Positions 1,818 through 43,629 of a DNA stretch of 64,000 nucleotides are shown one piece after another. Source of the DNA: an uncultured delta proteobacterium (GTDB lineage: Bacteria; Desulfobacterota; Binatia; Binatales; Binataceae); the NCBI GenBank assembly GCA_963771325.1, contig CAVYTJ010000002.1, positions 673,074-737,073 on the forward strand, written 5' to 3'. A program made the translations under genes and the position numbers. A model generated the notes under the pieces. The model was given only the letters and a program-made list of their open reading frames with translations, was not told the DNA's origin and did no database searches. Each line of letters starts with the position of its first letter. Position 1 is the first letter of the stretch.

Positions 1818-1928
1818 AGCTTCCCTGCGTTCAAAGCGGCGTCGATGATGCGCGGGCGTTCGCGCGTTCACTGCTCTTGCAAGCGCGGCCGGCCTGTTGA
1901 TAGACTAAGTGTCAGATTGACGCAAACT

Positions 1929-2966
1929 ATGGAATCAAATATGTCGCTTGAAATGCAATCCTCGACCGGCGCTGACACCGCCGGCGCGCGGCTATATCGC
2001 AAGCTCGCCGCTCTTGGGCAGGACGGCTACGACCTGGCGGCCTGCGAGCGCTACGCCGCCCAGATCGACGAAATCAACCGGCTCAAGGCCGAGCGCGGCG
2101 CGGTCGTGCTCGCGCACAACTACCAGCGCCCCGAAATATTCGAGGTCGCCGACTTTATCGGCGACTCGCTGGAACTCGCGTACAAGGCGCGCGAGGTCCG
2201 CGACGCCGGAATCATCGTGTTCTGCGGTGTCCACTTCATGGCCGAGACCGCCAAGGTCTTCAACCCCGAGCGGATGGTGCTGCTGCCAGACCTGCGGGCC
2301 GGATGCTCGCTGGCGGATAGCGTCACCGCCGAAGCGCTGGCCGAGCGCAAGGCCGAGTTGCGCGAGATTTATCCCGACCTCAAAGTCGTCTCCTACGTCA
2401 ACTGCACCGCCGACGTTAAGGCCGAGTCCGACGCCTGCTGCACGTCGGCCAACGCGCTCAAGGTGGTCGAGGCGATCGACTCCCGCCATGTGCTGTTCGT
2501 TCCCGATCAGAATCTCGCCAACTACGTGCAGAGCCAGACCAGCAAGAAGATCATCTCGTGGGACGGCAACTGCTACGTGCATCACCAGATAACCGCCGAG
2601 GAGGTCGACCGGGTCAAGCGCGCGATCCCCGGCATCAAGGTGCTGGCCCATCCCGAGTGCCGCACCGACGTGCTGCGGCTGGCCGACGCGGTGCTCTCGA
2701 CCAGCGCGATGGTGCGTTATGCCGAGAGCAGCGACGCGGACAAGTTCCTGATCGTGACCGAGTGCGGGCTCTCGGACCGGTTGCTGATGGAGATTCCGAA
2801 CAAGCACTTCTACAAGGCGTGCAAGCTCTGCCGCTACATGAAGATGATCACGCTGGGCGGCACGCTCGATTCGCTGCGCCACCTGCGCTTCGAGATCGAA
2901 CTGCCCGAAGACGTGCGCGAAGGGGCGCGCCGCGCGCTGGAGCGGATGCTCGAATTGGGCGCGTAG
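1929..2966 (+). CDS. nadA: quinolinate synthase
   Basis: VLAHNYQRPEIFEVADFIGDSLELA, FCGVHFMAETAKV and conserved Cys residues are NadA hallmarks. ATG at 1929. Confidence 0.9.
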   Translation: MESNMSLEMQSSTGADTAGARLYRKLAALGQDGYDLAACERYAAQIDEINRLKAERGAVVLAHNYQRPEIFEVADFIGDSLELAYKAREVRDAGIIVFCGVHFMAETAKVFNPERMVLLPDLRAGCSLADSVTAEALAERKAELREIYPDLKVVSYVNCTADVKAESDACCTSANALKVVEAIDSRHVLFVPDQNLANYVQSQTSKKIISWDGNCYVHHQITAEEVDRVKRAIPGIKVLAHPECRTDVLRLADAVLSTSAMVRYAESSDADKFLIVTECGLSDRLLMEIPNKHFYKACKLCRYMKMITLGGTLDSLRHLRFEIELPEDVREGARRALERMLELGA

Positions 2967-2977
2967 GAGACGCGGCT

Positions 2978-3127
2978 GTTGTCATCCTGAACGAAGGTTG
3001 CCGAAGTGAAGGATCAACGCGAAGCGATTTTTATGTTTATCGCCACCCTGAGACATCGGCAGATCGATAACGGCGCGAAGAGAGATCCATCGCTTCGCGG
3101 AGATCCTTCGCTGACGCTCAGGATGAC
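2978..3127. repeat. copy A of an inverted-repeat extragenic element (arm Y 2978-3030, 54-nt spacer, arm X 3085-3127); BIME/MITE-like
   Basis: Arm X (atccatcgcttcgcggagatccttcgctgacgctcaggatgac) is 43/43 identical to 32776-32818. Arm Y (tgttgtcatcctgaacgaaggttgccgaagtgaaggatcaacgcgaagcgatt) is near-identical to 32830-32886. X is approximately the reverse complement of Y. Confidence 0.75.
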
Positions 3128-3137
3128 AAAAGGGAGC

Positions 3138-6100
3138 CTAATCGCTTAACTCCTCGAGCAGCGCCTTGGCGTCTTTGAGGTCGGCGGTGTCGAAACCCTC
3201 GGAAAACCAGCCGTAGATTTCCGCGAGCATCGCGCGCGCTTCGTCGCGGCGGCCCAGTCGCGCGAGCAGACGCGCAAGGCTCATCACGGCGCGCAGCTCC
3301 CACGACCTGGCTTCCTGCTCGCGGGCGATCGCGATCGCCTGCTCGAAGCAGGTTTGCGCCTGCGCCTCAAATGGGGCTCCGCGGGTCAGCAGCGCCTCGC
3401 CTCTCAGCCGGCACAACTCGGCCGCGCTCATGCGCGCTCCGGTTTGCTCGATGACGTTGAGCGCCTGCTCCGCCGCGCTCCGCGCTTGGTCCGCCAGGCC
3501 CGCTTTGAGATAAGACGAAGCCAGGCCCACGACGACGGCGGCGGCGCCCAGCGCGGATCCCGTCGCGCGGTACGACTCGATGCCGGCCAGCGTTTCCGCG
3601 ATGCCCTCGTCGGTTCGTCCGAGCGCGGCTTGAGCGATACCGCGGTAAGTCGATCCGAGCGCGCTCCAATAGCGGAATCCGTGCTCCATCCCCACCCTGC
3701 GGGCCTCGTCCGCCAGTTGATGCGCGGCTTCGGGATCGCGGCGGCAAAGTTTGAGCATCGCTCCGTAACTGAGGGCAAAAGCCAGGCTCATCGGATGGCC
3801 GAGGTCTCGCGCGCGCCCCAACGCTTCGCCGCTCATCTCGAGCGCGGCGGCCGGATAGCCGAGCAGCCACAACGCCACCGACAAAAAAGAAAGCGAAGCG
3901 ACCCGCGGGTCCTGGGGCATCCCTTTCAACGGCGAAGGATCGTGTATGGCCGCCGCCTGTTCCAGTCTTGCGCGAGCGGCGCGGAATTTTCCGCTGAAGA
4001 GCGACACGGCGCCGCTCGCGAAATTCGCATTCGCTATCATGCCCGAATCACGCGCACGCTCGGCAATTTCGATTAGCTCCATGCTGGTCTGGTCCGCGCG
4101 TCCGAGATCGCGCCGTACCTGATGGAAGGCCCAGGCGAACATCAATGCAGGGAAGTGGAGCACGGGGTCGCCGAGTGCGCCGCTCAGTTCCAGCGCGCGC
4201 CGCGCGGATTCTTCGACTTCGGGCGCCGCATAGCCCTTGTTCGCAACCAGCGATCCGACCAGGGCAAGCCGCAGCTCGACTTCCCGCCGCATCCGCTCCT
4301 GGCCCTCGGGCTCGCGCGCGAGCATTTCGAGCGCGGAATTAAACAGGCTTGCCGCCTCTTCATGAGCGGAGCGCCGTTCCGCCTGCTCGCCGGCGAGCCG
4401 CAGATAGTGGATCGCCTTGCCGGCGTTTCCACTGCGGCTGTAATGGCGAGCGAGATCCGGCAAATGATCGTCGAGCTGATCGGCAAACAGCGCCTCGATC
4501 GCCTGTGCCGTGCGCTCGTGGAGCGGCTTGCGGCGCTCGTTCAGCACCGAGCCATACGCCACCTCGTGCGTGAGCGCGTGCTTGAAGCTGTATTCCACGT
4601 CAGGCAGCGCCGGCTGCTCGTAGATGAACTCGCCGAGCTGCAAATCGCCGAGCATCCGCTCCAGTTCGTCATCCGGCTTGCCGGTGACCCGTCTGACCAG
4701 ACCCAACGGAAACTCCTTGCCCATCACCGCCAGCGTCTGCAGCAGCTCTTTCTCGCCGGCGGGCAGACGGTCGATACGCGAGGCGAGAATCGCCTGGACC
4801 GTCGGAGGGATCCTCAGTTCGTCGAGCGCCTTGGTCAGCTTGAGCGTCCCGTTACGCACCAGGGCTCCCTCGTCGAACAGCACCTGCACGGTCTCTTCCA
4901 TGTAGAACGGGTTACCCTCGGTCTTGTCGATAATCAGCCCGCGAAGCGGTTGCAGCGCGACGTCGTCGCCGAGCAAGGCCGTCAGCATTTCCCCGGCGCT
5001 CTCGCGCCCCAGCGGATCCAACCGAAGCTGCGCGTAATGGCTTTTGTTGCTCCAGTTGTGCCGGTACTGCGGCCGATAATTCACCAGCAACAGCACGCGC
5101 GCGTTGGCAATCGCATCGACCAGCAGGTCGAGCAGCGCCTGGGTCTCGTTGTCGATCCAGTGCAAGTCCTCGAACACGACGATCAGCGGCCGGTTTAGGC
5201 TCTCGCGCAGCAAAATCCGCTTGATCGCCTCCAGCGTCCGCCGCTGGCGCACTTGTCCATCCATCTGCGCCAGCGCGCCGGCCGTTTCTTCCACGCCCAG
5301 CAGCGCAAACAGGTACGGCAGGGAGTCTTCCAGCGCGCGGTCGAGCATCATCACCTTGCCGGCCATCTTCTCGCGCCGTTTGCGCGCATCGTCGTTGGGC
5401 TCAATCTCGAAGTAGTTGTTCAGCAACTCGATAACCGGAAGGTAGGCCGAGGCCTTGCCGTGCGAGACCGAGAATGTTTCCAGCGTCAGGCATCCGCTCT
5501 GCGAGGTCATCTTGAATTCGTAGAGGAGCCGCGACTTGCCCAGCCCGGCCTCGCCCATCGCCGCGACGACCTGCCCGTGGCCCTTCTTCACCAGTTCGAG
5601 CGCGTGGCGCATCGCGGCCATCTCGCGCTCGCGGCCGACGAATTTCGAAAGGCCGCGGCCGGCCGAGCGCTGCAGCCGCGTGCGCAGCGATCCAAGTCCG
5701 GTCACTTCGTAAACGTTGACCGGCTCGTTGACGCCCTTGATGCGTGACGGTCCGAGGGCGCGGAAGAAAAAGTAGCCGTCGCACAGCCGAAACGTCGCTT
5801 CGCTCGCGACCACGGTGCCGGGCTCGGCCAGGGTTTGCATCCGCGAGGCCAGGTTGGCCGTATGGCCGATAGGTGTGTACTCGACGTGCTGCTCGCCGGT
5901 CTGAATGGGGCGCACTACCACTTCGCCGGTGTTGAGTCCGATGCGAATCTGGATTGGCGCACGCCCCTCGGCGCGCAAATAGCCGGCGAGCTTTTTGATC
6001 TCCTGCTGCATCCGGAGCCCCGCCAGCAGTGCGCGCTGCGGATGGTCTTCGTGGGCCACGGGAGCGCCGAACAACGCGAAGATGCCGTCGCCGGTGGATT

Positions 6101-6506
6101 GCACGACGTAGCCGTCGTAGCGATGCGCAGCGTCGATCATCAGCTTCAACGCCGGATCGATCACGCGACGAGCGTCTTCGGGATCAAGGTCCTCCATGAG
6201 CTCGGTCGAGCCCTTGATATCGGCGAACAGCGCGGTGACGGTCTTGCGTTCGCCTTCGATCTCCGCAGCCGGTAAGCCTGCCGCGATCACGCTAATCGAG
6301 GCGGGGGCCTTGCCTGGGGCGGACTGAGCGGCCGGTGTAGGAGTGCCGGCGGCTCCTTGCAGGGGTGCGGCGCACTCTCCGCAAAATCGCGCCGCAGGCG
6401 AGTTGTCAAATCCGCACCGTGAGCAGCGCCGCCTGAACGGAGCAGCGCACTGCTCGCAGAACTTGAGCCCTTCCGGATTTTCCGCCCCGCAAGCTGAACA
6501 GTGCAT
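3138..6506 (-). CDS. double zinc ribbon / class III adenylate-guanylate cyclase (CHD) / STAND AAA_16 ATPase / TPR protein (paralogue 1 of 3)
   Basis: N-terminus has two CxxC...CxxC ribbons (MHCSACGAENPEGLKFCEQCAAPF..CSRCGF..CGECAAPL). CHD motifs TALFADIKGST and VVQSTGDGIFALFG. Walker A GEAGLGKSRL and Walker B VVFEDLHWID. Long TPR-like C-terminus ending YGWFSEGFDTADLKDAKALLE. Confidence 0.9.
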   Translation of the reverse strand: MHCSACGAENPEGLKFCEQCAAPFRRRCSRCGFDNSPAARFCGECAAPLQGAAGTPTPAAQSAPGKAPASISVIAAGLPAAEIEGERKTVTALFADIKGSTELMEDLDPEDARRVIDPALKLMIDAAHRYDGYVVQSTGDGIFALFGAPVAHEDHPQRALLAGLRMQQEIKKLAGYLRAEGRAPIQIRIGLNTGEVVVRPIQTGEQHVEYTPIGHTANLASRMQTLAEPGTVVASEATFRLCDGYFFFRALGPSRIKGVNEPVNVYEVTGLGSLRTRLQRSAGRGLSKFVGREREMAAMRHALELVKKGHGQVVAAMGEAGLGKSRLLYEFKMTSQSGCLTLETFSVSHGKASAYLPVIELLNNYFEIEPNDDARKRREKMAGKVMMLDRALEDSLPYLFALLGVEETAGALAQMDGQVRQRRTLEAIKRILLRESLNRPLIVVFEDLHWIDNETQALLDLLVDAIANARVLLLVNYRPQYRHNWSNKSHYAQLRLDPLGRESAGEMLTALLGDDVALQPLRGLIIDKTEGNPFYMEETVQVLFDEGALVRNGTLKLTKALDELRIPPTVQAILASRIDRLPAGEKELLQTLAVMGKEFPLGLVRRVTGKPDDELERMLGDLQLGEFIYEQPALPDVEYSFKHALTHEVAYGSVLNERRKPLHERTAQAIEALFADQLDDHLPDLARHYSRSGNAGKAIHYLRLAGEQAERRSAHEEAASLFNSALEMLAREPEGQERMRREVELRLALVGSLVANKGYAAPEVEESARRALELSGALGDPVLHFPALMFAWAFHQVRRDLGRADQTSMELIEIAERARDSGMIANANFASGAVSLFSGKFRAARARLEQAAAIHDPSPLKGMPQDPRVASLSFLSVALWLLGYPAAALEMSGEALGRARDLGHPMSLAFALSYGAMLKLCRRDPEAAHQLADEARRVGMEHGFRYWSALGSTYRGIAQAALGRTDEGIAETLAGIESYRATGSALGAAAVVVGLASSYLKAGLADQARSAAEQALNVIEQTGARMSAAELCRLRGEALLTRGAPFEAQAQTCFEQAIAIAREQEARSWELRAVMSLARLLARLGRRDEARAMLAEIYGWFSEGFDTADLKDAKALLEELSD

Positions 6507-6579
6507 ATCCTCTGGTCACCCGGCTGACTATTCCCTATCTCGCCGGATGCCGACAAGCGTCCAGCAATATCCTGGCGTC

Positions 6580-7296
6580 CTATGGCCTTACTGTCTCACC
6601 CCGGTGCTTTCGATACATCTTGTCTCGCCACGCGAATATCGGGGCGAACGCTGAATTCGAGGTCACCGACGCGGTATACATCGGACGCATCGATGCGGGA
6701 AAAACGAAGAGCTCATCAGCAGGAGGGTTCACCAGCAGAAACATGCTCGCGGTGGTGAGATCGGCCCGGGTGAAAGCATCGCCGACTAAATACTCACGTC
6801 CATCGAGAGCATGTTTGAGTACCGTCAAAATCCGCTCGACCGTGACTTTGGCATGCTCCTCGGCATACTGGGTGTGTTGGTACTTCTGCGCAAAGTATTG
6901 TCCGCCTTGTTGCAATTCCGGCGCGCTCGATCGCAGAAAATGCCCAATGATGAGCATCCGCGCCTGAGGGCCCAGGACCCCGTCCATCAGCTCCTCCCAC
7001 ATCATCACCTGCGCCCGATCTTTCTCGGACTCCGGCATGAGCCGCGGTTGCGGGTGATGCTGCTCAAGCCAATTCAGGATCGCGGTCGAGTCGGGAATCA
7101 CCGTGCCATCAACGAGCAACACCGGGACCTGGGCCTGCCCGGTCAGTTTCTTTACTGCTTCTTCGTCCACCCCGGGCTGGTAGTCCTGTTTTTCATATGG
7201 CACGCCTTTGAAGTTGAGCGCCCATCGAACGCGTTCCGCCCAGGGCGACGCATACATCTGAATCAACTTTGTAGTACTCAACTTTGTACTGCTCAT
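6580..7296 (-). CDS. glutathione S-transferase family protein
   Basis: Thioredoxin-like N-terminal domain with YASPWAERVRWAL...QVPVLLVDGTVIPDSTAILNWLEQ, followed by a helical C-terminal domain. Only 24 bp downstream of paralogue 2 on the same strand. Confidence 0.75.
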   Translation of the reverse strand: MSSTKLSTTKLIQMYASPWAERVRWALNFKGVPYEKQDYQPGVDEEAVKKLTGQAQVPVLLVDGTVIPDSTAILNWLEQHHPQPRLMPESEKDRAQVMMWEELMDGVLGPQARMLIIGHFLRSSAPELQQGGQYFAQKYQHTQYAEEHAKVTVERILTVLKHALDGREYLVGDAFTRADLTTASMFLLVNPPADELFVFPASMRPMYTASVTSNSAFAPIFAWRDKMYRKHRGETVRP

Positions 7297-7320
7297 TTTT
7301 GAATACCCCCGCTGGAACGT

Positions 7321-10300
7321 TTAGGACAATTGTTCGATAAGTACCTTCGCGTCAATCAAATCTTTCGTATCAAGACCTTCGCTGAACCATCCGTAGATCT
7401 GCGCGAGCATCTGCCGGGCTTGCTCCTTCTTGCCTTGCTGCTCCCACAACCGGCTCAAGCTCGTCACCGCTCTTAACTCGAACGACTTGGCTTCTTGTTG
7501 ACGCGCAATCTCGATGGATTTACGGAAGCATTCTTCCGCTTCCATTTGGATGGCAGGCTCCGCTTCGACGCCGGAACGCCGGAGGACGAGTTCCCCCTTC
7601 AATCGATGGAGTGCCGCCTCGTTGTAGCGCTGGCCCGTTTTTTCCACTATCGCGATCGCCTCTGCCACAGCAGCCAGTCCTTCCTCGAAGCGTCCCGCTG
7701 TTGCGTATGCCTCCGCCAGGAAACAAAGAAACCACGGTCGGAACAGGCTGGCCCCTGATGCTAACTGGGCGTCCAAACCCTCGCGGATCATCGCAATTCC
7801 TTCCTCTGTTTGTCCCTGCTGGGCAAGTGCGTATCCTCGATACATAGTTGCCTGCGCCAGAAAACTCCCAAATCCTTGCTCCCTGCAGAGCGCGATCGCC
7901 GCCTCCGCTTGTTGCTGGTACGCAGGCCATTCCTTGCGAAGTTGAAGGATTGGAAGTGTGTGCAGCACCGTAAGTGCCAGGCTATACGCGTGAGACTGGT
8001 TGTGAGCCAGGGCGAATGTCTCCCCCATCCTCTTTGAAGACTGTTCTGGATGTCCGAGAAGCTCCAGGATCCACGCTGTCCTGCCGAGGCAAAACACTCC
8101 GGGATCCAGCCCATAGACAAATGTATGAACGTGATGTTTCTGAGGGTCGTACAAGCTGATCGCCCGTTCGAAGTGCTGCAAGGCAGGGATCAGCTTCCCG
8201 AAAAGGAACAGCGAATTTCCCTGCGCCAGATGAGCTTCCACCAGAAGACCAGAGTCTTGCACGCTCTCTGCCAGGCTCACGAGCTGCTGTGCTAGCTCAA
8301 AAGCCGACTGCAACTCTCCCCGTATGAGATGAAAGGATCGCAGACCAAACAACATTGGAAAGAGCCTTGCTTCCTCGCCTGATTGTCGGCCCAACTGGAG
8401 CGCTCGCTCGTAGACTGCCCCTACCTCTGGTGCCCCGTTCCCCTTCGTCGCTATCAGAACCGGACCAAGGATCGTCTGCAGGACCAACTCCCGCTGATCA
8501 CGTTGCGGGCTATTCGGCAAGGTCTTCAACAATTCCAATGCAGTAGTGAGGTATTTGATCGCTTCCGTGTTTGCGGATCGTTCGATAGCTTGTTGCGCGG
8601 CAAGTTGCAGATATTCCAGTGCCTTCAGGCTGCTTCCGCTGCAACTGTAGTGATGAGCCAGCTCTCCGTAGTGGTCTTCTAACCGAGAATTAAAGAGAGC
8701 TTCAATCTGACCTGCCGTGCGTTCGTGCAATTCCTTGCGCCGTTCTCCGAGTAACGAACCGTATGCCACCTCTTGGGTGAGCGCATGTTTGAAGGTGTAC
8801 GCAGATTCAGGAAAGGCAGGCTGCTCATAGATGAATTCGCTAAGTTGAAGGGCCGCAAGCATGCGTTCGAGTTCCTCGTCCGGCTTTCGTGTGACACCCC
8901 TTACCAGTCCGAGCGGGAATTCTTTGCCGATCACGGCGAGCGTCTGCAAGAACCCTTTCTCGTCCGCCGGCAGACGATCGATTCGCGAGGCCAGGATTCC
9001 CTTCACCGTGGGCGGGATGTGGATCTCGGATATTGAGCGGGTGACCTTGACCGCGCCATTGCGGACTAGCGCACCCTGATCGAACAGCGCCCGTATCATC
9101 TCCTCGATAAAAAATGGATTCCCCTCGGTTTTTTCGATGATCAGCCGCTTAAGCGGCCGCAGTTCCACCGCATCGCTCATCAATGCACTCAGCAACTCCT
9201 CGGCGCTCTCGCGCCCCAGCGGATCGAGCCGCAATTGAGTGTAGTACGTCTTACTGCCCCAGCTGTGTGAGTATTCGGGACGGTAATTCACGAGCATCAG
9301 GATCTTTGCGGTGCCGATCGATTCGACGAGCAGATTCAGCAGCGCCTGCGTCTGTTCATCGATCCAGTGCAGGTCCTCGAAGATCACGACCAGCAACTGG
9401 TTGAGGCTCTCGCGCAACAAAATCCGCTTGATGGCGTCCAGCGTGCGCCGACGCCGCAGGTCCGCGGCTATTTGCCCGAGCATCCCCCCTGGCTCCTCCA
9501 CCCCGAGCAGGGCGAAGACGTAGGGCAAGGTATCTTCCAGCGTCCGGTCGAGCATCAGTACCTTGCCGCCGATCTTTTCGCGCCGCCGCCGTTCGTTGTC
9601 TTCAGGGATCAGAGCGAAGTAGTCTTTGAGCAGCTCGATAACCGGCAGATAGGCCGAGGCCTTGCCGTGCGAGACCGAAAAAGCTTCGAGCACCAGGCAA
9701 CTGTCCTGCGCCACGGCTTTGAACTCGAAAAACAGCCTCGACTTGCCCAGCCCCGCCTCGCCCATCGCCGCTACCACCTGCCCGCGCGCGCCTTTAGTTC
9801 GCTCCAGCGCGCGCTTCATTTCCTCGATCTCGCGGTCCCGGCCGACGAATCGCGACAGCCCCCGCCGCGTCGACATCTGCAGCCGCGTGCGCAGCGGACC
9901 CAGCCCTACCAGCTCATAAACATTGACCAGCTCGCTCACGCCCTTGACCCGGGTTGGCCCCAACGTCTTGAACTCGAAGTATCCTTCGACCAGTTTCTGC
10001 GTATGCTCGCTCACCGCGATCGCCCCGGTCGGCGCGAGCGCCTGCATTCGCGCGGCCAGACTGGTCGAATGCCCGATCGGAGTGTACTCGGTGCGATGCT
10101 CGCCGGTCTGAACCGAGCGCACCACCATCTCGCCGGTGTTCAGCCCCACGCGAATCTCGATCGGCGCGCGCCCCTCCTCGCGCAGCTTGCTTGCGTACCG
10201 CTTGATGTCCTCCTGCATCTTGAGCGACGCGAGCAGCGCCCGCTGCGGATGGTCTTCGTGCGCGACCGGCGCTCCGAACAGCGCGAAGATGCCATCCCCG

Positions 10301-10746
10301 GTCGATTGCGCCACATAGCCCTCGTAGCGATGCACCGCGTCCATCATCAGCTTGAGCGCGGGATCGACCAGCCGGCGCGCCTCCTCCGGGTCGAGGTCCT
10401 CGATCAACTCCATCGAACCTTTGATATCGGCGAACAGGGCGGTGACCGTCTTGCGTTCGCCGTCGATCGCCATCGACGTTTCTGGCAGCTCCGCCGTGAC
10501 GCGAATTTCGGGAGCGGGTGCTGTTACCGGCGGCGCCTTGGGTGAAACAGCTTGAGCATTGCCAGCCAGCGCGCCCCCGCATTCGCCGCAGAAGTCCTCG
10601 CCGGGATCGTTCGAAGCACTGCATTGTGGGCACCGGCGCGCAAGCGAAGAACCGCATTTCGCGCAGAATTTGCGCCCCTCCCGATTTTCTGCTCCGCACT
10701 TCGCGCAGCGCATTTTTCCATTTCCCGTCTTGTCAGCGCGGTGCAC
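7321..10746 (-). CDS. double zinc ribbon / class III cyclase / STAND ATPase / TPR protein (paralogue 2 of 3)
   Basis: Same architecture as 3138-6506: CAKCGAEN..CAKCGS, TALFADIKGSMELIEDLDPEEARRLVDPALKLMMDAVHRYEGYVAQSTGDGIFALFG, GEAGLGKSRL, FEDLHWID. C-terminus ends YGWFSEGLDTKDLIDAKVLIEQLS. Confidence 0.9.
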   Translation of the reverse strand: MHRADKTGNGKMRCAKCGAENREGRKFCAKCGSSLARRCPQCSASNDPGEDFCGECGGALAGNAQAVSPKAPPVTAPAPEIRVTAELPETSMAIDGERKTVTALFADIKGSMELIEDLDPEEARRLVDPALKLMMDAVHRYEGYVAQSTGDGIFALFGAPVAHEDHPQRALLASLKMQEDIKRYASKLREEGRAPIEIRVGLNTGEMVVRSVQTGEHRTEYTPIGHSTSLAARMQALAPTGAIAVSEHTQKLVEGYFEFKTLGPTRVKGVSELVNVYELVGLGPLRTRLQMSTRRGLSRFVGRDREIEEMKRALERTKGARGQVVAAMGEAGLGKSRLFFEFKAVAQDSCLVLEAFSVSHGKASAYLPVIELLKDYFALIPEDNERRRREKIGGKVLMLDRTLEDTLPYVFALLGVEEPGGMLGQIAADLRRRRTLDAIKRILLRESLNQLLVVIFEDLHWIDEQTQALLNLLVESIGTAKILMLVNYRPEYSHSWGSKTYYTQLRLDPLGRESAEELLSALMSDAVELRPLKRLIIEKTEGNPFFIEEMIRALFDQGALVRNGAVKVTRSISEIHIPPTVKGILASRIDRLPADEKGFLQTLAVIGKEFPLGLVRGVTRKPDEELERMLAALQLSEFIYEQPAFPESAYTFKHALTQEVAYGSLLGERRKELHERTAGQIEALFNSRLEDHYGELAHHYSCSGSSLKALEYLQLAAQQAIERSANTEAIKYLTTALELLKTLPNSPQRDQRELVLQTILGPVLIATKGNGAPEVGAVYERALQLGRQSGEEARLFPMLFGLRSFHLIRGELQSAFELAQQLVSLAESVQDSGLLVEAHLAQGNSLFLFGKLIPALQHFERAISLYDPQKHHVHTFVYGLDPGVFCLGRTAWILELLGHPEQSSKRMGETFALAHNQSHAYSLALTVLHTLPILQLRKEWPAYQQQAEAAIALCREQGFGSFLAQATMYRGYALAQQGQTEEGIAMIREGLDAQLASGASLFRPWFLCFLAEAYATAGRFEEGLAAVAEAIAIVEKTGQRYNEAALHRLKGELVLRRSGVEAEPAIQMEAEECFRKSIEIARQQEAKSFELRAVTSLSRLWEQQGKKEQARQMLAQIYGWFSEGLDTKDLIDAKVLIEQLS

Positions 10747-11693: not shown

Positions 11694-13428
11694 ATGGCGG
11701 CAGAACATGCAGTCCGCTTCGGTCCCTATCGGCTCGACGCCTCCGAGGAGCAGGTCTGGCGGGGCCAACAGCTGGTGAAGCTCACGCCCAAGAGCTTCTC
11801 CGTTCTGCGCTACCTCGCGGAACGTCCAAAGCGCCTAGTCACCAAGGAGGAACTGTTCAGGGCACTGTGGCCGAATACGGCGGTTAGCGATGCGGCATTG
11901 ACAAGATGCATTCGCGAGATTCGGGAGGCGCTCACCGACGATGCGCGCTCGCCCCATTACATCGAGACCGCGCACCGGCGTGGGTTTCGCTTCGTTGGGC
12001 CCCCGGCCGAGGTGCGCCAGCCGATCCCGCGAACGAAGACAAAGTATGCGAAGAGTGGAGGCGTTAACATCGCCTATCAGGTCGTCGGCGAGGGCCCGGT
12101 CGACCTGGTGATGGTGCCCGGGTGGACCTCGAACGTGGAGGGCTGGTGGGAGCTACCCGCCTCGGCGGCCTTCTATGAACGGCTGGCGACCTTCTGCCGC
12201 CTTATCATTTTCGACAAGCGGGGAACCGGCATGTCGGACCCCTTTCCCCTCGATCAACCGCCCACGCTCGAGCAGCGGATGGACGACGTGCGAGCGGTCA
12301 TGGACGCAGCGGGCTTCGAACGGGCGGTATTGTTCGGATATTCCGAGGGTGGCCCGATGTCCCTCCTATTTGCCGCCACCTACCCGGAGCGGACGGTCGC
12401 GCTCGTTCTGCACGGGACGTTCGCCAAGCAGGAATGGCATGACACATTTGCGGCGAGGCTCGCCGAAACGCCCGAACAACTCGCGGCGCTGGTCGAGGAG
12501 CGATGGTCCGAGGGCTGGCCCGGCCTCGATGTATGGGCGCCGACCTTCGCGGACAACGAAGAGAACCGACAGGCGTTCGCCCGCTTCATGCGGCAAGCGG
12601 CGAGCCCCGCGACCGCCGCGGCGATCCTACGGATGTCGTGGGAGATCGACGTGCGGCCCATTTTGCCCGCGATCCGCGTGCCGACCTTGATTCTCCACCG
12701 CCGCGAAGAACGAGCGTTTGGCGTGGCGCATGCGCGATATCTCGCCGATCACATTCCTGAGGCGAAGTATGTCGAGATGCCCGGCGTGGATCACCTCCTG
12801 TACGCTGGCGACCACGAGGCGATAGCGGAGACGGTCGAGGAGTTCCTGACCGGTGCCCGACATGCCCGCAAGGCCGGCCTTCTCGCCACGGTGTTGCTCA
12901 TCGACGTCGTGGATTCGGCGGGACGAGCCTCCGAGCCCGGCGACCGCGCCTGGCGAAGTCTCCTCGGGCGCTACCAGGAGTTGGTTCGAAGGGAAGTGAG
13001 CCGTTTTCGTGGACGCGAGGCGGCAGGTGATCGCTGCGCGGCGACGTTCGACGGCCCGATCCGAGCGCTTCGCTGTGCGCTGAGGCTGCGTGAGGCCCTT
13101 CGGGAGTCAAGACTTCCAAATCCGCATGAGTGTACACACCGGAGAATGCGAATTCCAAAACGATCGGCTGAGCGGCACTACGGTTCGCATCGCGGCCCAG
13201 ATTCTCGCCAAAGCCGCGCCGGGTGAGATCTGGGTATCGGGTACCACGAAGGATTTGGTACCCGGCTCGAGAATCGAGTTTGAGGATCGAGGACTACACG
13301 TCTTAGGCGATATCCCACGACAATGGCCTTTGTTCATCGTGAAATCGACGGATGACGCGGCAACCCGTCGATCACGGTCTCTTCCTCCTTCTCGCTCACA
13401 GCTCTACCGGACCGCTCGGCGCGGATGA
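11694..13428 (+). pseudogene. winged-helix (OmpR/CadC-type) + alpha/beta-hydrolase + class III cyclase-domain protein, interrupted by a +1 frameshift near 13096-13105 (possibly an assembly artefact)
   Basis: Residues 1-105 VRFGPYRLD...LTPKSFSVLRYLAERPKRLVTKEELFRALWPN...RRGFRFVG form a trans_reg_C domain. This is followed by an alpha/beta-hydrolase fold (GYSEGG nucleophile elbow). CHD start LLIDVVDSAG...GDRCAATFDG is in frame 0, and the CHD continues as IRMSVHTGECEF...GTTVRIAAQ in frame +1 (ORF 13090-13428). The shift site is at a CCC/GGG run. Confidence 0.75.
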
Positions 13429-34098: not shown

Positions 34099-35412
34099 TC
34101 AGTGCATCAATTGCGTCAGGCCGGTGGGATTCTGGAACTTCGAGATGTTGTCATACTGCGGCGAGTAGCGGTCGGCCCACAAATCCTCGCCATTGGCGTC
34201 GGCGGTGAAGATGTGAGTGGCGTGCTGCTCCTGGAGGTTCCAGTACTGCTCGATGATTCCGCCGCCGAAGTACTGCGGCCCCCACTCCGGATGGAGCCGG
34301 TCCTCGCGCGTGCGCAGCCCGATATTCACCACCTTCCACAGTGCCATGCTCGAGTCGTACAGGTCCTCGTGCACGTTGGCGAAATAGGCCTGGGCGGTGT
34401 ACATGATGCGCTTGCCGTAGCAGTAGCCCGAGCGCATCGACTCGATCCGGCGCACGTCGGTCACCCACACCGGCACCACTTCCCATTTGCCCCACGACGG
34501 CTTCGCCCAGCCAAGCGGCAGATCGTAGTTGTCGGGAAACTTGCCCATCGCGGTGGTCATGTCGACCAGCGCGAGAATATTCTGTTCACGCAGGAACTGG
34601 CCCTCGAACACTGAAGCGCCGCCGTTCCATCCCACTCGCTGATCGTCGTGCGTTGCGTCGCTGTCGAACAGCGGCGCGCATCGCGCCGAGGTCGAAAGCC
34701 GCATCGCCTGGCGCAGCGCCGGGATGAAAACGTAGTCGTCGGGCAGCCGGGTCACGTCCTGCCAGTACAGTGTCAGATCGGCCGAGTACTTCGCTTCCTC
34801 GGGCACCTCGACCATCAGCCATTCGCCGTACCACGCTCCGGTCGAGCCGGGCTCGGTGTGCGAGATGCCGGGGAACCAGTTGTAGGCGAGCTGGCGATAA
34901 TTGTAATCGACGCGAGTGCAGGCCTTGCTGCCGAACTTGTCCATCGTGCAAAACGACGACGGGGTCCCCGAATCGGGCATGCCGACGTAGAGATGGCCGC
35001 CGGGACGAAAGGTGACGTCGGCCGCGATCTCGGTCCCCTTGTCGGGGCCCGACGGATGCGGAAACGGAACGCCGGAGACATAGTTTTCCAGCTTGTAGGC
35101 GCCGTTGGGCAACTTGAGAAAGCGGGTCTGCGCCGAGTACTTCTCCACCGCGTCCCAAAACGGCTTGGGCAGCGGATGGATCGCCGTCAGCCCCACGTCC
35201 ATTTCGACGTCAGGCGGCATCTTCCAATCGACGCTGCCGTCGAATAGCGCGATCATCCCGTCGGGCATGAAGGCCTTGTACTGCTGCCAGTTCTTCATGG
35301 TGATTTTGGTGCCGGGCGGGATGGTGTTCTCCACCGCCCCGGCCATCGCCACACTGAGAAAGCAGAGTGCGAGGCCGATGATTCCAGGCAACAGCTTCCG
35401 AATGCCGTTCAT
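34099..35412 (-). CDS. secreted hypothetical protein (signal peptide; DUF1329-like size and composition)
   Basis: Own ATG at 35412 with a GGAGGG RBS 8 nt upstream. [26 protein letters not shown]... signal peptide. The ORF track fuses it with ctaB only because no stop intervenes in that frame. Confidence 0.6.
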
Positions 35413-35465
35413 CTCGAGGTCCCTCCCTGTTCCAAATCGAGGAAACTCACGCTCCCGGTGTGCGA

Positions 35466-36378
35466 TTAAACACGGTCGAGCACGATTACCAGGAATACGA
35501 TCGGCAAATACAAGAGCGAAGCGAACATCACGCGGCGCGCCGCCGCGGCGGCATTCGGGTTGCGCGCGAGCCGCAGTCCCGAAGGTCAGCATCATCGCGC
35601 CCAGCGCGAGCGCGACCGCCATCGAGATCCACCCGGCGAAGCCCAGCAGCGTGGGCAGCGCGCCCGCCGCGATGAGCGCGATGCAATCGAGCAGGATCAG
35701 CTTGTCCACTGGATTAAGGCGCGGATTACCGCGTCCGCCCGCAAGCGGCAGCATGCTGATTCCGGCGCGCGCGTAGTCGCTCTGGTAAAGCCGCGCAATC
35801 GAGAGCGAATGGGGAAGCTGCCACAGGCACATGATGAGGAACAGGATGAAAGGTTCGACGCCGAGTCTTCCGCTGGCCGCGGCCCATCCGGCAACCGGCG
35901 GCAGCGCTCCGGGCACCGCGCCGACGGCATGGCAAAGCCACGAGACCCGCTTGAGCGGCGTATACGCGAACAGGTAGAGCAGCGCGATTGCGGCGGTCAC
36001 CGCGGCGGCCAGAAAATTCGCCGCCACCCACAGCCAGGCGCATCCGCCGACCGTCGTGACGAGGCCGAAGACCAGCGCCTCGGGCGGGCTCAGGCGTCCC
36101 TCGGGCAGCGGGCGATGCTGCGTTCGGATCATCAGGGCGTCGATGCGGCGCTCGAAATACTGGTTGAGCGCGAGCGTGCCGCCGGCGGCGAGCGCGGTGC
36201 CGAACAGCGTATTCAGCGCAAGCCACAGGTCGAAGCGCTCGGCGCTGCCGAGATAGAAGCCGACCAGCGTGGTCAGCAGAACCATCGCGAGCACGCGCGG
36301 TTTGGTCAGCTCGAGATAGGCCGCGGCGCGCTTGCGCGCGCCGCTCGCCGATGCGAGCGCAACGGCTTCGGCGCTCAT
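35466..36378 (-). pseudogene. ctaB: protoheme IX farnesyltransferase (heme O synthase) with a C-terminal frameshift near 35550-35590 (GC-rich tract; probable assembly indel)
   Basis: UbiA-family motifs YLELTKPRV, NQYFERRIDALMIRTQHRPLP. The conserved C-terminal helix ...RRVMFASLLYLPIVFLVIVLDRV* with TAA stop at 35466 is in the +1 frame relative to the upstream body. Confidence 0.8.
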
Positions 36379-37541
36379 GCGCCCACCTCGTGCCGCGCCG
36401 GCGCGCCCAACCGAGGCGCACGTGCGCGCGCGCTCTCAGAGCCGCCGGCGTCGCGCACCGCGCGCTCCAGATGCCATGCGCGCAAGCTTAGCGCGAGGCA
36501 GGTTGCGAGCACCGCCGCTCCCACCGCGACGTGCGAGGTCGTCGGGACGACCGCGCGGCGGCTTAGAACCGTCGCCGCGCCGAGCCCTATCTGCAGCGCG
36601 AGCAGCACCAGCAACCCCAGCGCCGGGCGCCGCAGCGACGGCTCATCACGATATTCCCGCAGCGTCCGCGCGACCGTCCACAGCACCATCGCCGTGACCA
36701 CCACCGCACCACATCGATGGGCAAAGTTGACCGCGATCGGCACCGAGAACATCGGCGGCACCAGGTGCCCGAAGGCAAGCGGAAAATCGGGAATCGCGAG
36801 GCCCGCATGCATGTGCCGCATCAGCGCGCCGATAATTATCTGCAAGTAGATGACTCCGGTGGTCACGCCAGCGAGCGGCGCCACGGGCGTCCGGCTGGGC
36901 GTGAGCGCCGTCGGCGCCACCGGCGCCATCACCTGCCAAGCCGGGCTCGTGAACAACGCGATCGCGACCATCAGGCAAAAGAAGGCCTGCCCGGTCATCG
37001 CGTGCGCGACCGCGAACGTCAGGGGCAGATTCAAAAGCACGGTTATGCCCCCGAGCACGGCCTGCACGACCACCATTCCGAAAGCCGCGAGCGCCGTGTA
37101 CCGGACCCACGCGCGCCGCTCGGCCATCCAGACCCACAACGCCAGCGTCAGGGTGAGAATCGAGACCGTGCCGGCGATCGCGCGATGGCCCCACTCGAAA
37201 AGCACTCCCGCTCCCCACTGTTGTGGCACCAGGCGGCCGGCGTCGAGCGGCCACGACGGCACCGCCATCGCGGATCCGGTGGAAGTCACCAATCCTCCGG
37301 CGAAAACCAGAACGAAGGTGGCGGCGGCGGCGAAAACAGCGAAACGATGAAGGGCCACCGAAGAGGACGGGCCGCGGCCCGCGTCGGGCGAAGCTTGAAA
37401 ATCAGATCGTGTGGTCTGCGAGAACGCGCTCACGTTTATTCCATTCTCGTCCGCACGGCGCTTTGCCGAACTCCGCGACAAGACCTCACGGCTGGACCTC
37501 ATGTCATTAGAATCGCGAACAATACTCTGCTCGAAAAACAA
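36375..37541 (-). CDS. ctaA: heme A synthase (CtaA/COX15 family)
   Basis: Eight TM helices with conserved His-containing segments (EWGHRAIAG..., AHAMTGQAFF, MRHMHAGLA). The N-terminal 40 aa of the ORF may not be translated. 4-nt overlap with ctaB. Confidence 0.75.
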   Translation of the reverse strand: MFFEQSIVRDSNDMRSSREVLSRSSAKRRADENGINVSAFSQTTRSDFQASPDAGRGPSSSVALHRFAVFAAAATFVLVFAGGLVTSTGSAMAVPSWPLDAGRLVPQQWGAGVLFEWGHRAIAGTVSILTLTLALWVWMAERRAWVRYTALAAFGMVVVQAVLGGITVLLNLPLTFAVAHAMTGQAFFCLMVAIALFTSPAWQVMAPVAPTALTPSRTPVAPLAGVTTGVIYLQIIIGALMRHMHAGLAIPDFPLAFGHLVPPMFSVPIAVNFAHRCGAVVVTAMVLWTVARTLREYRDEPSLRRPALGLLVLLALQIGLGAATVLSRRAVVPTTSHVAVGAAVLATCLALSLRAWHLERAVRDAGGSESARARAPRLGAPARHEVGA

Positions 37542-40215: not shown

Positions 40216-43200
40216 CTAACTCAACTTCGATTCGAGCAGCGCCTTCGCGTCTTTCAGGTCGGCGATGTCGAAGCCCTCGGTGAACCAGCCGTAGATCTTG
40301 CCAAGCCTGGCGCGCGCTTCGTCGCGGCGGCCCTGCTGGTCGAGTAACCGAGCGAAACTGGTCGTCGCGCGCAACTCCCACATCCTTGCGCTTTGCATTC
40401 GAGCGATTTCTATCGCGCGCAGCAAAGAGCTTTCGGCCGCGACAAGGTTCCCTTGCGTCAGCCGCGCGACGCCCGCAATGCGGTGAAGTTCCGCCGTGAA
40501 TTGGCGCTCACCCGATTCTTCGGCCTGCCGGAGAGCATCGCTCACGACATCCAACGCCTCATCACAATGCCCGATCGAGCTCAAACCCGCCGCGAATTCT
40601 CCCAGGAACCATGGACCCCCAAGCACTGAACCGAGAGCTCGCCAGGCATCGAATCCCTGTTTGATGGTATCGACTCCCCGTGCCCCCTCTCCACGCTGGA
40701 CCGCGGCGCATCCCATCAATATCTGTGCAAACGCCAGGTAAAAAGCCAGCCCATGCTCGGCGGCCAGCGCCGTCGACGTTCGGCAGCGTTCGATAGCTGC
40801 ATCTGGTTCTCGTCGCAAAAGATGTAACTGTCCCGCGTATATCGTGGCCATGGCCAGCGCTCTTGGATGAGCCAGCACATGCGCCACCTGGACGCAGTCC
40901 AAGACGGTCCTAAGGGCCTGATCTGGATAACCCCGATAGTGTTGAGTCCAAGCCGCGTAAGCTCTTGAGATCATCGCTGGATCATCGACAAAGACCCGAG
41001 AAGGCGGCGTTCCTGGCTTGCACGCGTCGATCGCCAGCGCTAAGCGCTCGGAAGCGGTTTCGATTCGCCCACACCAGAATGCGGTGTCACCTGCGGCGAA
41101 ATTCGCATACGCAAGACGAGTGTCGTCCTTGGATTCACCCACTGATGTGAGAAGTCGCTCTGCCAATGCCTCGGCGTCACGAAGTTCCGCGCGTAGCAAG
41201 TGAAAGACCCACAATCCGGATAAGGCCTCGAAGAGCGCCGAGGTATCCCCGGCTAGCTGGCAAAGCTCAAGCGCCCGCGTGTAGTTCGCGCCAATCTCTG
41301 AAGCACCCTGACCTTTGACTGCCATCAGACTAGGCCCAATCAAAATTCGGAGTCGAATTTCCTGGACTCGATTGCCCTGATCGTCTGGCAGCTCCGATAT
41401 GAGCTCTAAAGCGGTCCCAAGCTGTGCGATGGCGCCGTTGTCGGCGCCCTTGGCAGCGGTCTGCTCTCCGGCTCGAGTGAGATATTCGATGGCCTTCTCG
41501 AGGTTTCCACCTCGGCGATACTGATGAGCGAGCTCCGCCAGGTGATCGTCAAGGCGGTCGGCATAAAGCGACTCGATCGCGGCTGCGGTCCGCTCGTGGA
41601 GCACCCGCCGCCGCTCGCTCAGGACTGAGTTGTAGGCGACTTCCAGTGTCAGCGAGTGCTTGAAGGTGTACTCGGCGTCGGGCAGTGCGGGCTGCTCATA
41701 GATGAACTCACCGAGCTGCAGATCGCTCAGCATCCGTTCGAGCTCGTCGGCGGATTTGTCGGTTACCTTTTTGATCAGTCCGAGCGGGAACTCCTTACCC
41801 ATCACGGCCAGGGTTTGTAAGAGGTCTTTTTCATCGGCCGGTAACCGATCAATACGCGAGGCGAGGATCACCTGCACGGTGGGCGGGATGTTCAGCTCGC
41901 TCAATGGCTTGGTGAGCTTGACCGCACCATTGCGGACCAGAACTCCTTCGTCGAGCAGTACCTGCACGGTCTCCTCCATAAAGAACGGATTGCCGTGGGT
42001 CTTCTCGATAATCAGGCGTTTGAGCGGTTTGAGCGAAGGATCATCGCCCAGAAGCGCACCCAGCAACTCTTCGGCACTCTCCTGCCCGAGCGGGTCGAGC
42101 CGGAGGCGGGCATAGTAGGTCTTGCTGCCCCAGCCGTGACGGTACTCGGGACGGTAATTGAGCAGCAGCAGCACCCGAGCGTTGCCGATCGCGTCGGCCA
42201 TGAGATCGAGTAAGGCTTGGGTTTCGGCGTCGATCCAGTGCAAGTCCTCGAAGATCACGACCAGCGGCTGGTTGAGGCTTTCACGCAACAGAATGCGCTT
42301 GATGGCTTCCAGCGTGCGGCGCCGACGCGCCTGTGCGTCCATCTGGGCCAGTGCGCCGACGGTCTCCTCGACTCCAAGGAGCGCGAAGAGGAACGGCAAT
42401 GCGTCCTCTAACATGCGATCGAGCGTGAGGACTTTGCCAGTGATCTTTTCCCGTCGCCTGCGTGCGTCGTCCTCGGCCTCGATCTCGAAGTAGTTGTTGA
42501 GCAGCTCAATAACGGGCAAATAGGGCGACGCCTTGCCGTGAGAGACGGAGAACGTTTCCAAAACAAGGCATCCACTCTGCGAGGTCGCCTTGAATTCGTA
42601 AAACAACCGTGACTTGCCCAGCCCGGCCTCGCCTATCGCGGCAACGATCTGCCCGTGGCCTTTCCGTACCAGTTCCAGTGCGCGCCGCATCTCCGCCACC
42701 TCTCGCTCGCGCCCGACGAACTTCGTGAGCCCACGCCCGGCCGCTCGCTGCAGCCGGGTTCTGAGCGGGCCGACTCCCGTCACCTCGTAAACGTCAACCG
42801 GCTCACTGACTCCCTTGACGCGAACCGGCCCCAATGCCTTGAACGCAAAGTAGCCCTGACATAAACGATGGGTCGCCTGACTGCTCACCACCGAGCCAGG
42901 GTCGGCCAGCGTTTGCATGCGCGAGGCGAGGTTCGCCGTATGCCCGATCGGCGTGTACTCGATCTGCTTCGCGCCGGTTTGGATCGGCCGCACCACCACC
43001 TCTCCGGTGTTGAGTCCGACCCGGATCTGGAGTGGGGCGCGGCCCTCGGCGCGCAGCCGGCTCGTCAGCCGTTTTATCTCCTGCTGCATCCGGAGCGCGG
43101 TCAACACCGCCCGCTGTGGATGGTCCTCGTGGGCGACGGGTGCGCCGAAGAGCGCAAAGATGCCATCACCGGTCGACTGCACGACGTAACCGTCATAGTG

Positions 43201-43629
43201 ATGGACCGCGTCAATCATTATCTTGAGCGCGGGGTCGATCACCCGACGAGCGTCCTCTGGATCGAGATCCTGTATCAGCTCGGTCGATCCCTTGATGTCA
43301 GCGAACAGTGCGGTGACCAGCTTGCGCTCGCCCTCCGGTACATCCTCGGCTTCTACAGAAGCGCTGACGCCGATCGTCGGACCCGATACGGCCGGCGCTG
43401 CGAACTGACCGGCTTTAGCGCCTTTAACCGCCTGGCCCAGGGCGGTACCGCATGCGTTGCAGAATCTCGCACCCGTCCGGTTGGATGCCCCACACGAAGG
43501 ACACCCCTGTGGCAGAGCGGTTCCGCATGCGTCGCAGAACCTGGCGCCATCGAAGTTCTCTGAGCCGCAGCTTGAGCAGTTCATCAACCTAGCCGTGACC
43601 TTGATGATGGAACTTTCTCGGTTTAGCAA
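40216..43629 (-). CDS. double zinc ribbon / class III cyclase / STAND ATPase / TPR protein (paralogue 3 of 3)
   Basis: CSSCGSENFDGARFCDACG..CPSCGASNRTGARFCNACG. The CHD is ~85% identical to paralogue 1 (TALFADIKGSTELIQDLDPEDARRVIDPALKIMIDAVHHYDGYVVQSTGDGIFALFG). GEAGLGKSRL, FEDLHWID. C-terminus YGWFTEGFDIADLKDAKALLESKLS. Confidence 0.9.
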   Translation of the reverse strand: MLNRESSIIKVTARLMNCSSCGSENFDGARFCDACGTALPQGCPSCGASNRTGARFCNACGTALGQAVKGAKAGQFAAPAVSGPTIGVSASVEAEDVPEGERKLVTALFADIKGSTELIQDLDPEDARRVIDPALKIMIDAVHHYDGYVVQSTGDGIFALFGAPVAHEDHPQRAVLTALRMQQEIKRLTSRLRAEGRAPLQIRVGLNTGEVVVRPIQTGAKQIEYTPIGHTANLASRMQTLADPGSVVSSQATHRLCQGYFAFKALGPVRVKGVSEPVDVYEVTGVGPLRTRLQRAAGRGLTKFVGREREVAEMRRALELVRKGHGQIVAAIGEAGLGKSRLFYEFKATSQSGCLVLETFSVSHGKASPYLPVIELLNNYFEIEAEDDARRRREKITGKVLTLDRMLEDALPFLFALLGVEETVGALAQMDAQARRRRTLEAIKRILLRESLNQPLVVIFEDLHWIDAETQALLDLMADAIGNARVLLLLNYRPEYRHGWGSKTYYARLRLDPLGQESAEELLGALLGDDPSLKPLKRLIIEKTHGNPFFMEETVQVLLDEGVLVRNGAVKLTKPLSELNIPPTVQVILASRIDRLPADEKDLLQTLAVMGKEFPLGLIKKVTDKSADELERMLSDLQLGEFIYEQPALPDAEYTFKHSLTLEVAYNSVLSERRRVLHERTAAAIESLYADRLDDHLAELAHQYRRGGNLEKAIEYLTRAGEQTAAKGADNGAIAQLGTALELISELPDDQGNRVQEIRLRILIGPSLMAVKGQGASEIGANYTRALELCQLAGDTSALFEALSGLWVFHLLRAELRDAEALAERLLTSVGESKDDTRLAYANFAAGDTAFWCGRIETASERLALAIDACKPGTPPSRVFVDDPAMISRAYAAWTQHYRGYPDQALRTVLDCVQVAHVLAHPRALAMATIYAGQLHLLRREPDAAIERCRTSTALAAEHGLAFYLAFAQILMGCAAVQRGEGARGVDTIKQGFDAWRALGSVLGGPWFLGEFAAGLSSIGHCDEALDVVSDALRQAEESGERQFTAELHRIAGVARLTQGNLVAAESSLLRAIEIARMQSARMWELRATTSFARLLDQQGRRDEARARLGKIYGWFTEGFDIADLKDAKALLESKLS

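Follow-up and report, generated by a model that had tools for sequence, protein, structure and literature searches.

Which nucleotide does a class III cyclase prefer when its adenine-specifying Lys has been replaced? This question is raised by three paralogous genes within a 64,000-nucleotide stretch of DNA, referred to here as the window, from an uncultured delta proteobacterium of the family Binataceae (assembly GCA_963771325.1, contig CAVYTJ010000002.1, forward-strand positions 673,074 to 737,073). Each of the genes encodes a large protein with a cyclase homology domain (CHD). The Lys at the first specifying position of such domains normally hydrogen-bonds adenine N1. According to a preliminary description of the window, this position is occupied by Gln in all three CHDs and the position of the specifying Asp by His. 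Alignment to solved cyclases upheld the Gln, but placed Thr rather than His at the second position.

Gln136 and Thr211 as the predicted base-reading pair

A tblastn search with the CHD of paralogue 1 detected exactly three such domains in the window, at 5697–6251, 9904–10458 and 42775–43329, all on the minus strand. The first spans residues 86–270 of paralogue 1 (185 residues), and translation of 5696–6251 on the minus strand does yield the domain quoted in the preliminary description. The CHDs of paralogues 2 and 3 are 72% and 83% identical to it, respectively. A GDGIYA motif match at 57555 was considered as a possible fourth CHD and dismissed as a chance hit, since tblastn returned only the three.

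To set the register, we used HMMER alignments to five solved cyclase structures, namely Cya2 (2w01), CyaB (3r5g), an engineered Cya2 (6fht), CaGC (6sir) and CaAC (5oyh), together with an independent MAFFT alignment. The two methods were concordant at every active-site column. When trimmed ATG starts are used, a single numbering applies to all three paralogues: Asp96, Gln136, Asp140, Thr211, His215, Asn or Ser218 and Arg222. At position 136, where the paralogues have Gln, there is a Lys in CyaB, engineered Cya2 and CaAC and a Glu in Cya2 and CaGC. Thr211 of the paralogues is aligned with Thr in CyaB, Gly in Cya2, Cys in CaGC and Asp in CaAC, and His215 with Arg in CyaB, Ala in Cya2 and Asp in both CaGC and CaAC. 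The assignment of positions 136 and 211 follows from two pairs of wild-type and engineered enzymes that differ at exactly these columns. The two Cya2 structures, 2w01 and 6fht, differ by one Glu-to-Lys change, and 6sir and 5oyh differ by E497K and C566D, two changes engineered for specificity that make contact with the adenine base (PMC5967339). Thr211 is also seven residues before the Asn of the NxxxR motif, which is the canonical spacing of the specifying Asp.

We additionally modeled the CHD with AlphaFold2, using an alignment of 17 sequences; with its pLDDT of 66, the model served for secondary-structure placement and Foldseek ranking only. In this model Thr211 is on the β-strand that precedes helix α4, His215 is in the following loop and residue 218 is at the start of the helix. 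Taken from the sequence alignments, the base-reading pair of all three paralogues would thus be Gln136/Thr211. The by-eye register was four residues off at the second residue, with His215 lying downstream of the Asp-equivalent position. Alignment to canonical CHDs, which the preliminary description had proposed as a check on its own register, therefore exposes an error there, but even the corrected alignment has no Lys/Asp pair.

In paralogue 1, the codons of these residues are all on the minus strand. Asp96, the first metal-binding Asp (FADIKG, where every solved cyclase has its F/SxD motif), is encoded by GAT at 6219–6221. Gln136, four residues before the second metal-binding Asp, is encoded by CAA at 6099–6101, and Asp140 itself (GDG) is at 6087–6089. 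Thr211 (EYTPIGH) is at 5874–5876, His215, in the loop before α4, at 5862–5864, Asn218, the transition-state and ribose Asn, at 5853–5855, and the transition-state Arg222 at 5841–5843. The corresponding positions on the same strand are 10306–10308 (Gln136), 10081–10083 (Thr211) and 10069–10071 (His215) in paralogue 2, and 43177–43179 (Gln136), 42952–42954 (Thr211), 42940–42942 (His215) and 42931–42933 (Asn218) in paralogue 3. Both metal-binding Asp residues and Arg222 are present in all three paralogues, as had been noticed before. The same had been said of the transition-state Asn, but only two paralogues, 1 and 3, have kept it; in paralogue 2, Ser218 takes its place (10060–10062, within GHSTSLAARM). 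Not every active cyclase has this Asn: Rv1900c, which is active, carries His at the position (PMC4886424).

A class IIIb-like domain with one unusual specificity residue

Substitution of Thr for Asp at the substrate-binding position is a defining polymorphism of class IIIb cyclases (PMC2613629). The paralogues have this Thr, and their nearest solved relatives are class IIIb enzymes. The best PDB sequence matches of the CHD were Cya2 (2w01, E = 1.3e-27), CyaB (3r5g, E = 1.5e-26) and CyaC, with E values ranging from 1e-27 to 1e-13, and CyaB, Cya2 and CyaC were also the top Foldseek matches of the AlphaFold2 model (TM scores of 0.7–0.8). The departure from the class is at the first position, which has Gln136 in place of Lys. 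Only one specifying position is thus unusual, as class IIIb enzymes normally have Thr at the second. Judged by its sequence, the domain is a class IIIb-like CHD with Lys-to-Gln as its single unusual specificity feature.

Comparison with individual class IIIb enzymes is in line with this placement. The specifying pair is Lys/Thr in Pseudomonas aeruginosa CyaB (3r5g) and in Spirulina CyaC (PDB entries beginning with 1wc), Glu/Gly in Synechocystis Cya2 (2w01) and Gln/Thr in the paralogues, which thus have the Thr at the Asp position in common with CyaB. As in CyaB, CyaC and Cya2, both metal-binding Asp residues, the Arg and, in paralogues 1 and 3, the Asn are conserved, and the CHD is of the homodimer type, in which a single chain has all six residue classes. 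Unlike these enzymes, the paralogues have an Arg at residue 199, where the others have the β4 Gly, and a His at position 215, where the others have Arg or Ala. Moreover, their CHD is fused to a STAND NTPase and a tetratricopeptide repeat (TPR) region and not to GAF, CHASE or MASE domains.

Conservation and covariation in the family

We next asked how typical these residues are among homologs. In total, 274 CHDs were aligned to the query: 119 domains from the 120 closest homologs listed by a word-indexed search (the close set) and 155 domains from the 150 best representatives of clusters at 50% identity (the representative set). Gln136 is present in all 119 close domains and in 138 of the 155 representatives. 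Thr211 is found in 116 and 89 of them, respectively, with Val, Ser or Ala elsewhere, and His215 in 116 and 96, with Gln in 27. Asp96 is retained in every one of the 119 close homologs, and both metal-binding Asp residues as well as Arg222 are nearly invariant across the alignment. The family is large, comprising 2,709 clusters at 50% identity with E < 1e-30. Gln136 is therefore not a local oddity, but a family-wide trait of a very large and generically annotated family.

The pairing of residues provided independent evidence for the register. Gln at position 136 is accompanied at position 211 by Thr in 202 domains, by Val in 24, by Ala and Ser in eight each and by Asp in one, while Lys at position 136 is accompanied by Asp in four domains and by Ser in two. 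A Gln/Asn pair, as reported for Mycobacterium tuberculosis Rv0386, occurs in only two of the 274. His215, on the other hand, is independent of position 136, being also present in the Lys/Asp member P0214. The covariation of position 136 with 211, and the occurrence of His215 together with Lys/Asp, thus point to 136/211 and not 136/215 as the functional pair. The Lys/Asp proteins form a small sister group with the canonical residues (YVAKSLGDG ... DYDPVG), which includes P0171, P0187, P0197, P0214 and Marinobacterium aestuarii WP_067381694.1. Members of this group, P0171 and WP_067381694.1 among them, have a zinc ribbon, CHD, AAA_16 and TPR, just as the Gln/Thr proteins do.

His215 instead covaries with position 218. 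Across the family alignment (P0001–P0270), the 215–218 pairs are His-Asn in 137 domains, His-Ser in 56, His-Gly in 14 and Gln-His in 26, so that nearly every domain has a His at position 215 or 218. Residues 215 and 218 (spanned by 5853–5864, 10060–10071 and 42931–42942 in paralogues 1, 2 and 3) are at the N-terminus of α4 and probably share a ribose or transition-state role. Such a shared role would account for the tolerated loss of Asn218, in place of which about 40% of the 274 aligned domains have Ser, Gly or His (59 of 155 among the representatives). The Gln-Thr-His-Ser combination of paralogue 2 represents a stable subfamily, being found in 46 of the 274 domains and also in the orthologs of paralogue 2.

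At least 90% of the 274 domains have Arg199 (5910–5912 in paralogue 1), as do all members of the 17-sequence alignment A1, in place of the Gly in the canonical β4 'VVG' motif. Compared with CyaB and Cya2, the segment that follows has one additional residue (RPIQTGE versus GNIGS-E). We considered whether this Arg compensates for the lost Lys and rejected the idea, as it is present in Lys/Asp and Gln/Thr members alike.

Some relatives (P0223, P0239, P0243, P0265 and P0266) have two CHDs in tandem. In several of these (for example P0223, P0239 and P0266), one copy lacks metal-binding or transition-state residues, resembling a pseudo-heterodimer; in P0223, the tandem CHDs continue into AAA_16 and TPR. 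The close homolog P0003 (JGI), with 1,734 residues, matches only 74% of the query, with 61% identity; its gene model may represent a fusion or a tandem.

Domain architecture of the three proteins

The gene of paralogue 1 (3138–6506, minus strand) encodes 1122 amino acids, comprising a double zinc ribbon, the CHD, an AAA_16 STAND NTPase and TPR. Paralogues 2 (7321–10713, 1130 residues) and 3 (40216–43584, 1122 residues), on the same strand, have the same architecture, and Pfam DZR, PF00211, AAA_16 and TPR were detected in all three. The starts of the latter two deserve a comment. Mechanical open reading frames (ORFs) extend to an upstream GTG at 10746 (7321–10746) and an upstream TTG at 43629 (40216–43629), but in the alignment residue 1 of paralogue 1 pairs with residue 12 of the longer paralogue 2 frame. 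Sequence similarity thus suggests that the true starts are likely the ATG codons at 10713 (MRCAKCG) and 43584 (MNCSSCG).

In paralogue 1, the double zinc ribbon occupies residues 2–45 (6372–6503; DZR PF12773, 36.5 bits, and Zn_Ribbon_1) and has four CxxC pairs, CSAC, CEQC, CSRC and CGEC. The CHD scores against PF00211 are 80.3, 77.4 and 87.5 bits in paralogues 1, 2 and 3, well above the cutoff of 21.9 bits for this class III domain. The AAA_16 NTPase follows at residues 288–472 of paralogue 1 (5091–5645; PF13191, 65.9 bits); across the paralogues the score is 66–72 bits against a cutoff of 32.6, and all three have a Walker A motif, GEAGLGKS, at residue 318. The TPR or sensor region covers residues ~700–1122 of paralogue 1 (3141–4409; TPR_12); among the paralogues, the repeats matched TPR_12 and TPR_MalT. 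By sequence, all three proteins qualify as STAND NTPases, in that a P-loop AAA_16 domain carrying Walker A precedes a repeat sensor. Pfam scans of the paralogues revealed no helix-turn-helix (HTH) family, and TPR reaches the C-terminus. A PDB sequence search with the zinc-ribbon part gave only insignificant matches. Each gene encodes a cytoplasmic STAND-type signaling protein with a zinc ribbon, a class IIIb-like CHD, an AAA_16 NTPase and a TPR sensor.

Divergence of the paralogues and their genomic neighborhood

The paralogues are 55–61% identical to each other over their full length and 72–83% identical in the CHD. The divergence is distributed unevenly: the CHD, NTPase and middle region are 68–83% identical, but the C-terminal TPR region of ~420 residues (3141–4409, 7324–~8610 and 40219–~41490, minus strand) only 31–44%. 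On the sequence level, a conserved CHD and NTPase combined with a fast-diverging TPR region fits the pattern of a diversifying receptor family. Each paralogue has orthologs of its own in other metagenome-assembled genomes (MAGs) at 75–93% identity, with the homolog P0001 of paralogue 1 at 93%. Moreover, the gene order paralogue 2–GST–paralogue 1–NadA (1845–10746) is conserved in related Binataceae MAGs (loci L001, L002 and L005). From the separate orthologs and the conserved order, it follows that the paralogues are old and stable and have diverged sensors. The lineage is that of Candidatus Binataceae/Binatus from soil metagenomes, with several copies per genome.

Within this conserved order, NadA is at 1845–2966, and the GST-like gene (6580–7296) is located between paralogues 2 and 1 on the same strand and may be linked to the cyclase genes in an operon. 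In addition to NadA and GST, the flanking genes encode an OmpR-type winged helix-turn-helix (wHTH)/hydrolase fusion, MMPL, CtaA, UbiA, an acyl-CoA-synthetase-like (AMP-binding) enzyme, SecD, Tgt and a histidine kinase with a sigma-54 regulator. The loci are ordinary housekeeping chromosome, with a lineage-specific expansion of signaling proteins. Directly upstream of paralogue 2 but on the plus strand, a 510-residue ORF (11694–13226) fuses an OmpR/PhoB-type winged helix (Trans_reg_C) to an α/β-hydrolase domain, an unusual architecture for a regulator. A 759-residue ORF (34099–36378, minus strand), adjoining CtaA (36375–37541), combines a UbiA prenyltransferase (residues 33–267) with DUF1329 (residues 359–684); the two domains may be truly fused or belong to separate genes joined in one ORF.

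Relation to Rv0386, TOMM and Pycsar cyclases

A precedent for a Gln-bearing CHD is Rv0386 of M. tuberculosis. This enzyme, the subject of work by Castro and colleagues in 2005, reportedly has a Gln57/Asn106 pair and is said to be mainly an adenylyl cyclase with guanylyl cyclase side activity. Rv0386 is classed as IIIc and, like its paralogues Rv1358 and Rv2488c, consists of CHD, ATPase, TPR and LuxR-type HTH. In the citing passages of two papers (bioRxiv 10.1101/2024.03.06.583649 and PMC3466318), the Rv0386 study is credited with the Gln-Asn pair and guanylyl cyclase side activity; the sentence in the former names Rv2488c while citing the Rv0386 study. The Binataceae proteins resemble Rv0386, as reported, in having Gln at the Lys position, in non-canonical substrate selection and in a CHD that precedes a STAND-type ATPase and helical repeats. 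They differ in the second residue, which is Thr211 here and, by those accounts, Asn in Rv0386, in the absence of a C-terminal LuxR HTH from the Pfam matches and in the additional N-terminal double zinc ribbon. Their CHDs are also nearest to class IIIb and not IIIc.

Two other cyclase groups came up in profile searches. NCBIfam TIGR03903 (TOMM kinase/cyclase fusion) matches the proteins with 375–465 bits against a cutoff of 705.75, from profile positions 256–276 to ~1265. As the profile matches from the cyclase domain through the C-terminus, the CHD-NTPase-TPR body is homologous to TIGR03903, but the kinase found at the N-terminus there is replaced by the double zinc ribbon. Membership in a TOMM system was rejected: the scores are below cutoff, the kinase is missing and no TOMM biosynthesis genes are nearby. 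PADLOC PycC profiles likewise match all three proteins, scoring 54–63 bits, with best scores of 60.5–63.2 bits. PycC has the CHD fold in common with the paralogues, but these are much larger, multidomain and without an associated effector gene. No PycTM/PycTIR or other effector of cyclic nucleoside monophosphates (cNMPs), nor any Pycsar or TOMM gene, was found among the flanking genes. Since the PycC scores are also lower than those of the generic Pfam PF00211 (77–88 bits), we rejected Pycsar membership. In published Pycsar cyclases, the base-selecting residues are at other positions (PMC11224242).

Activity, base selection and alternative explanations

How, then, might these proteins work? 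We consider it probable that they are active cyclases of purine nucleotides, gated by oligomerization and relaxed in their choice of base, as has been described for Rv0386. The TPR region would bind a paralogue-specific ligand or partner, and this binding, by analogy with other STAND proteins, would drive nucleotide-dependent oligomerization of the STAND NTPase. Class III cyclases require a head-to-tail CHD dimer. Oligomerization would pair two CHDs into such a dimer and thereby switch on cNMP synthesis; a homodimer is expected, since each chain by itself has every residue class. The neutral, ambidentate Gln136 in place of Lys would make discrimination between purines weaker or more relaxed. 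The product is not predictable from sequence, but by analogy with the reported Gln/Asn enzyme Rv0386, it would most likely be cyclic AMP (cAMP) with some cyclic GMP (cGMP).

This is close to the preliminary view that the enzymes are probably active, with a product that sequence cannot reveal. That view holds to the extent that the domains seem catalytically equipped and have a non-canonical Gln, but not for the Gln/His pair on which it was stated. The original observation is thus partly confirmed, and its interpretation partly supported. Several points weigh against relaxed, oligomerization-gated purine cyclases. The gating is inferred by analogy with other STAND proteins, and the NTPase/TPR part had no match in the PDB sequence search, that is, no solved relative by sequence. 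The AlphaFold2 model is poorest around the QSTGDG hairpin and supports no claims about three-dimensional contacts. Activity may be weak in paralogue 2, which has lost Asn218, and the window showed no gene for a cNMP receptor. Finally, literature searches turned up no biochemistry of any Gln/Thr CHD, and nothing relevant on Binatota cyclases or on STAND-cyclase function.

Several alternatives have to be weighed against relaxed purine cyclases. The Gln/Thr CHDs could be primarily guanylyl cyclases, or truly dual in specificity, with the change from Lys/Asp to Gln/Thr representing a switch towards GTP. Gln, an isostere of the guanine-specifying Glu, could use its carbonyl oxygen as a hydrogen-bond acceptor for guanine N1-H or N2-H; Gln136 aligns to the Glu of the bona fide guanylyl cyclases Cya2 and CaGC, the former being the best PDB sequence match. 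Guanylyl cyclases also tolerate many residues at the second position, Thr included (PMC4215837), and covariation of Lys-Asp versus Gln-Thr within one architecture suggests a functional switch and not drift. However, Gln is not negatively charged as Glu is, CyaB, the next-best match, is an adenylyl cyclase that likewise has Thr, and the only Gln-bearing CHD known to be characterized, that of Rv0386, reportedly acts mainly as an adenylyl cyclase, with guanylyl cyclase side activity. On balance, we regard a primarily guanylyl or dual specificity as unlikely. A related scenario, in which a clade of fixed architecture switched from Lys/Asp to Gln/Thr in concert and gained His215, amounting to a true change of product (cGMP, mixed purine or another cNMP), with the Binataceae paralogues as an NLR-like array, seems unlikely to us. 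As for the Gln/His pair itself, His215 is indeed present in nearly all close homologs and near the active-site helix in sequence. However, with two alignment methods and five solved cyclases placing Thr211 at the Asp/Cys/Thr/Gly column, with the canonical spacing pointing to Thr, and with His215 covarying with 218 and not 136 and occurring in a Lys/Asp member, a specifying role for His at the Asp position is extremely improbable.

The remaining alternatives concern activity and biological context. With the canonical Lys lost in all three paralogues, and Asn218 lost in paralogue 2 and in a sizeable part of the family, the CHDs might be weak or dead, acting as dimerization or regulatory modules. 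Alternatively, paralogue 2 might be a degenerate heterodimer partner of paralogue 1, akin to mammalian C1/C2, an idea favored by their being neighbors in the conserved arrangement and by the existence of tandem-CHD relatives with one degenerate site. Yet the metal-binding Asp residues, Arg222 and Gln136 are nearly invariant in more than 250 sequences down to ~50% identity, which is unexpected for a dead site, and the Asn is dispensable, judging from Rv1900c (PMC4886424). Paralogue 2 also keeps all other catalytic residues on both half-sites and so does not look like a one-sided degenerate subunit. We therefore find dead CHDs or a degenerate partner quite unlikely. The proteins could instead make pyrimidine cNMPs (cCMP/cUMP) in an anti-phage system resembling Pycsar or NLRs, in which STAND/TPR would sense a phage protein. 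The PycC matches would fit this explanation, and the STAND module, diversifying TPR sensor and multi-copy expansion do resemble Avs/NLR-type immune sensors. However, PycC scores below those of the generic CHD profile indicate no more than a shared fold, the Pycsar base-selecting residues are elsewhere (PMC11224242), and the neighbors, including NadA, GST, MMPL and the AMP-binding enzyme, are in conserved synteny with no adjacent effector. The pyrimidine product that the preliminary description had listed as an option thus finds no specific support, and we consider it very improbable.

Implications

With the corrected register, the base-reading pair is predicted to be Gln136/Thr211 and not to involve His215, which changes the choice of residues that matter for mutation and testing. 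It also places the Gln-bearing enzymes beside class IIIb cyclases and not in a class of their own. If there was indeed a switch of product, the multi-copy, sensor-diversified paralogues of Binataceae would constitute an NLR-like receptor array using a nucleotide distinct from the ordinary cAMP pool. The Gln-bearing CHD-STAND family is apparently uncharacterized and annotated only generically. Its Lys/Asp sisters, with identical architecture, represent a natural control for a comparison of specificity with Gln/Thr members. A single such comparison of products would calibrate product prediction for thousands of signaling proteins of soil bacteria.

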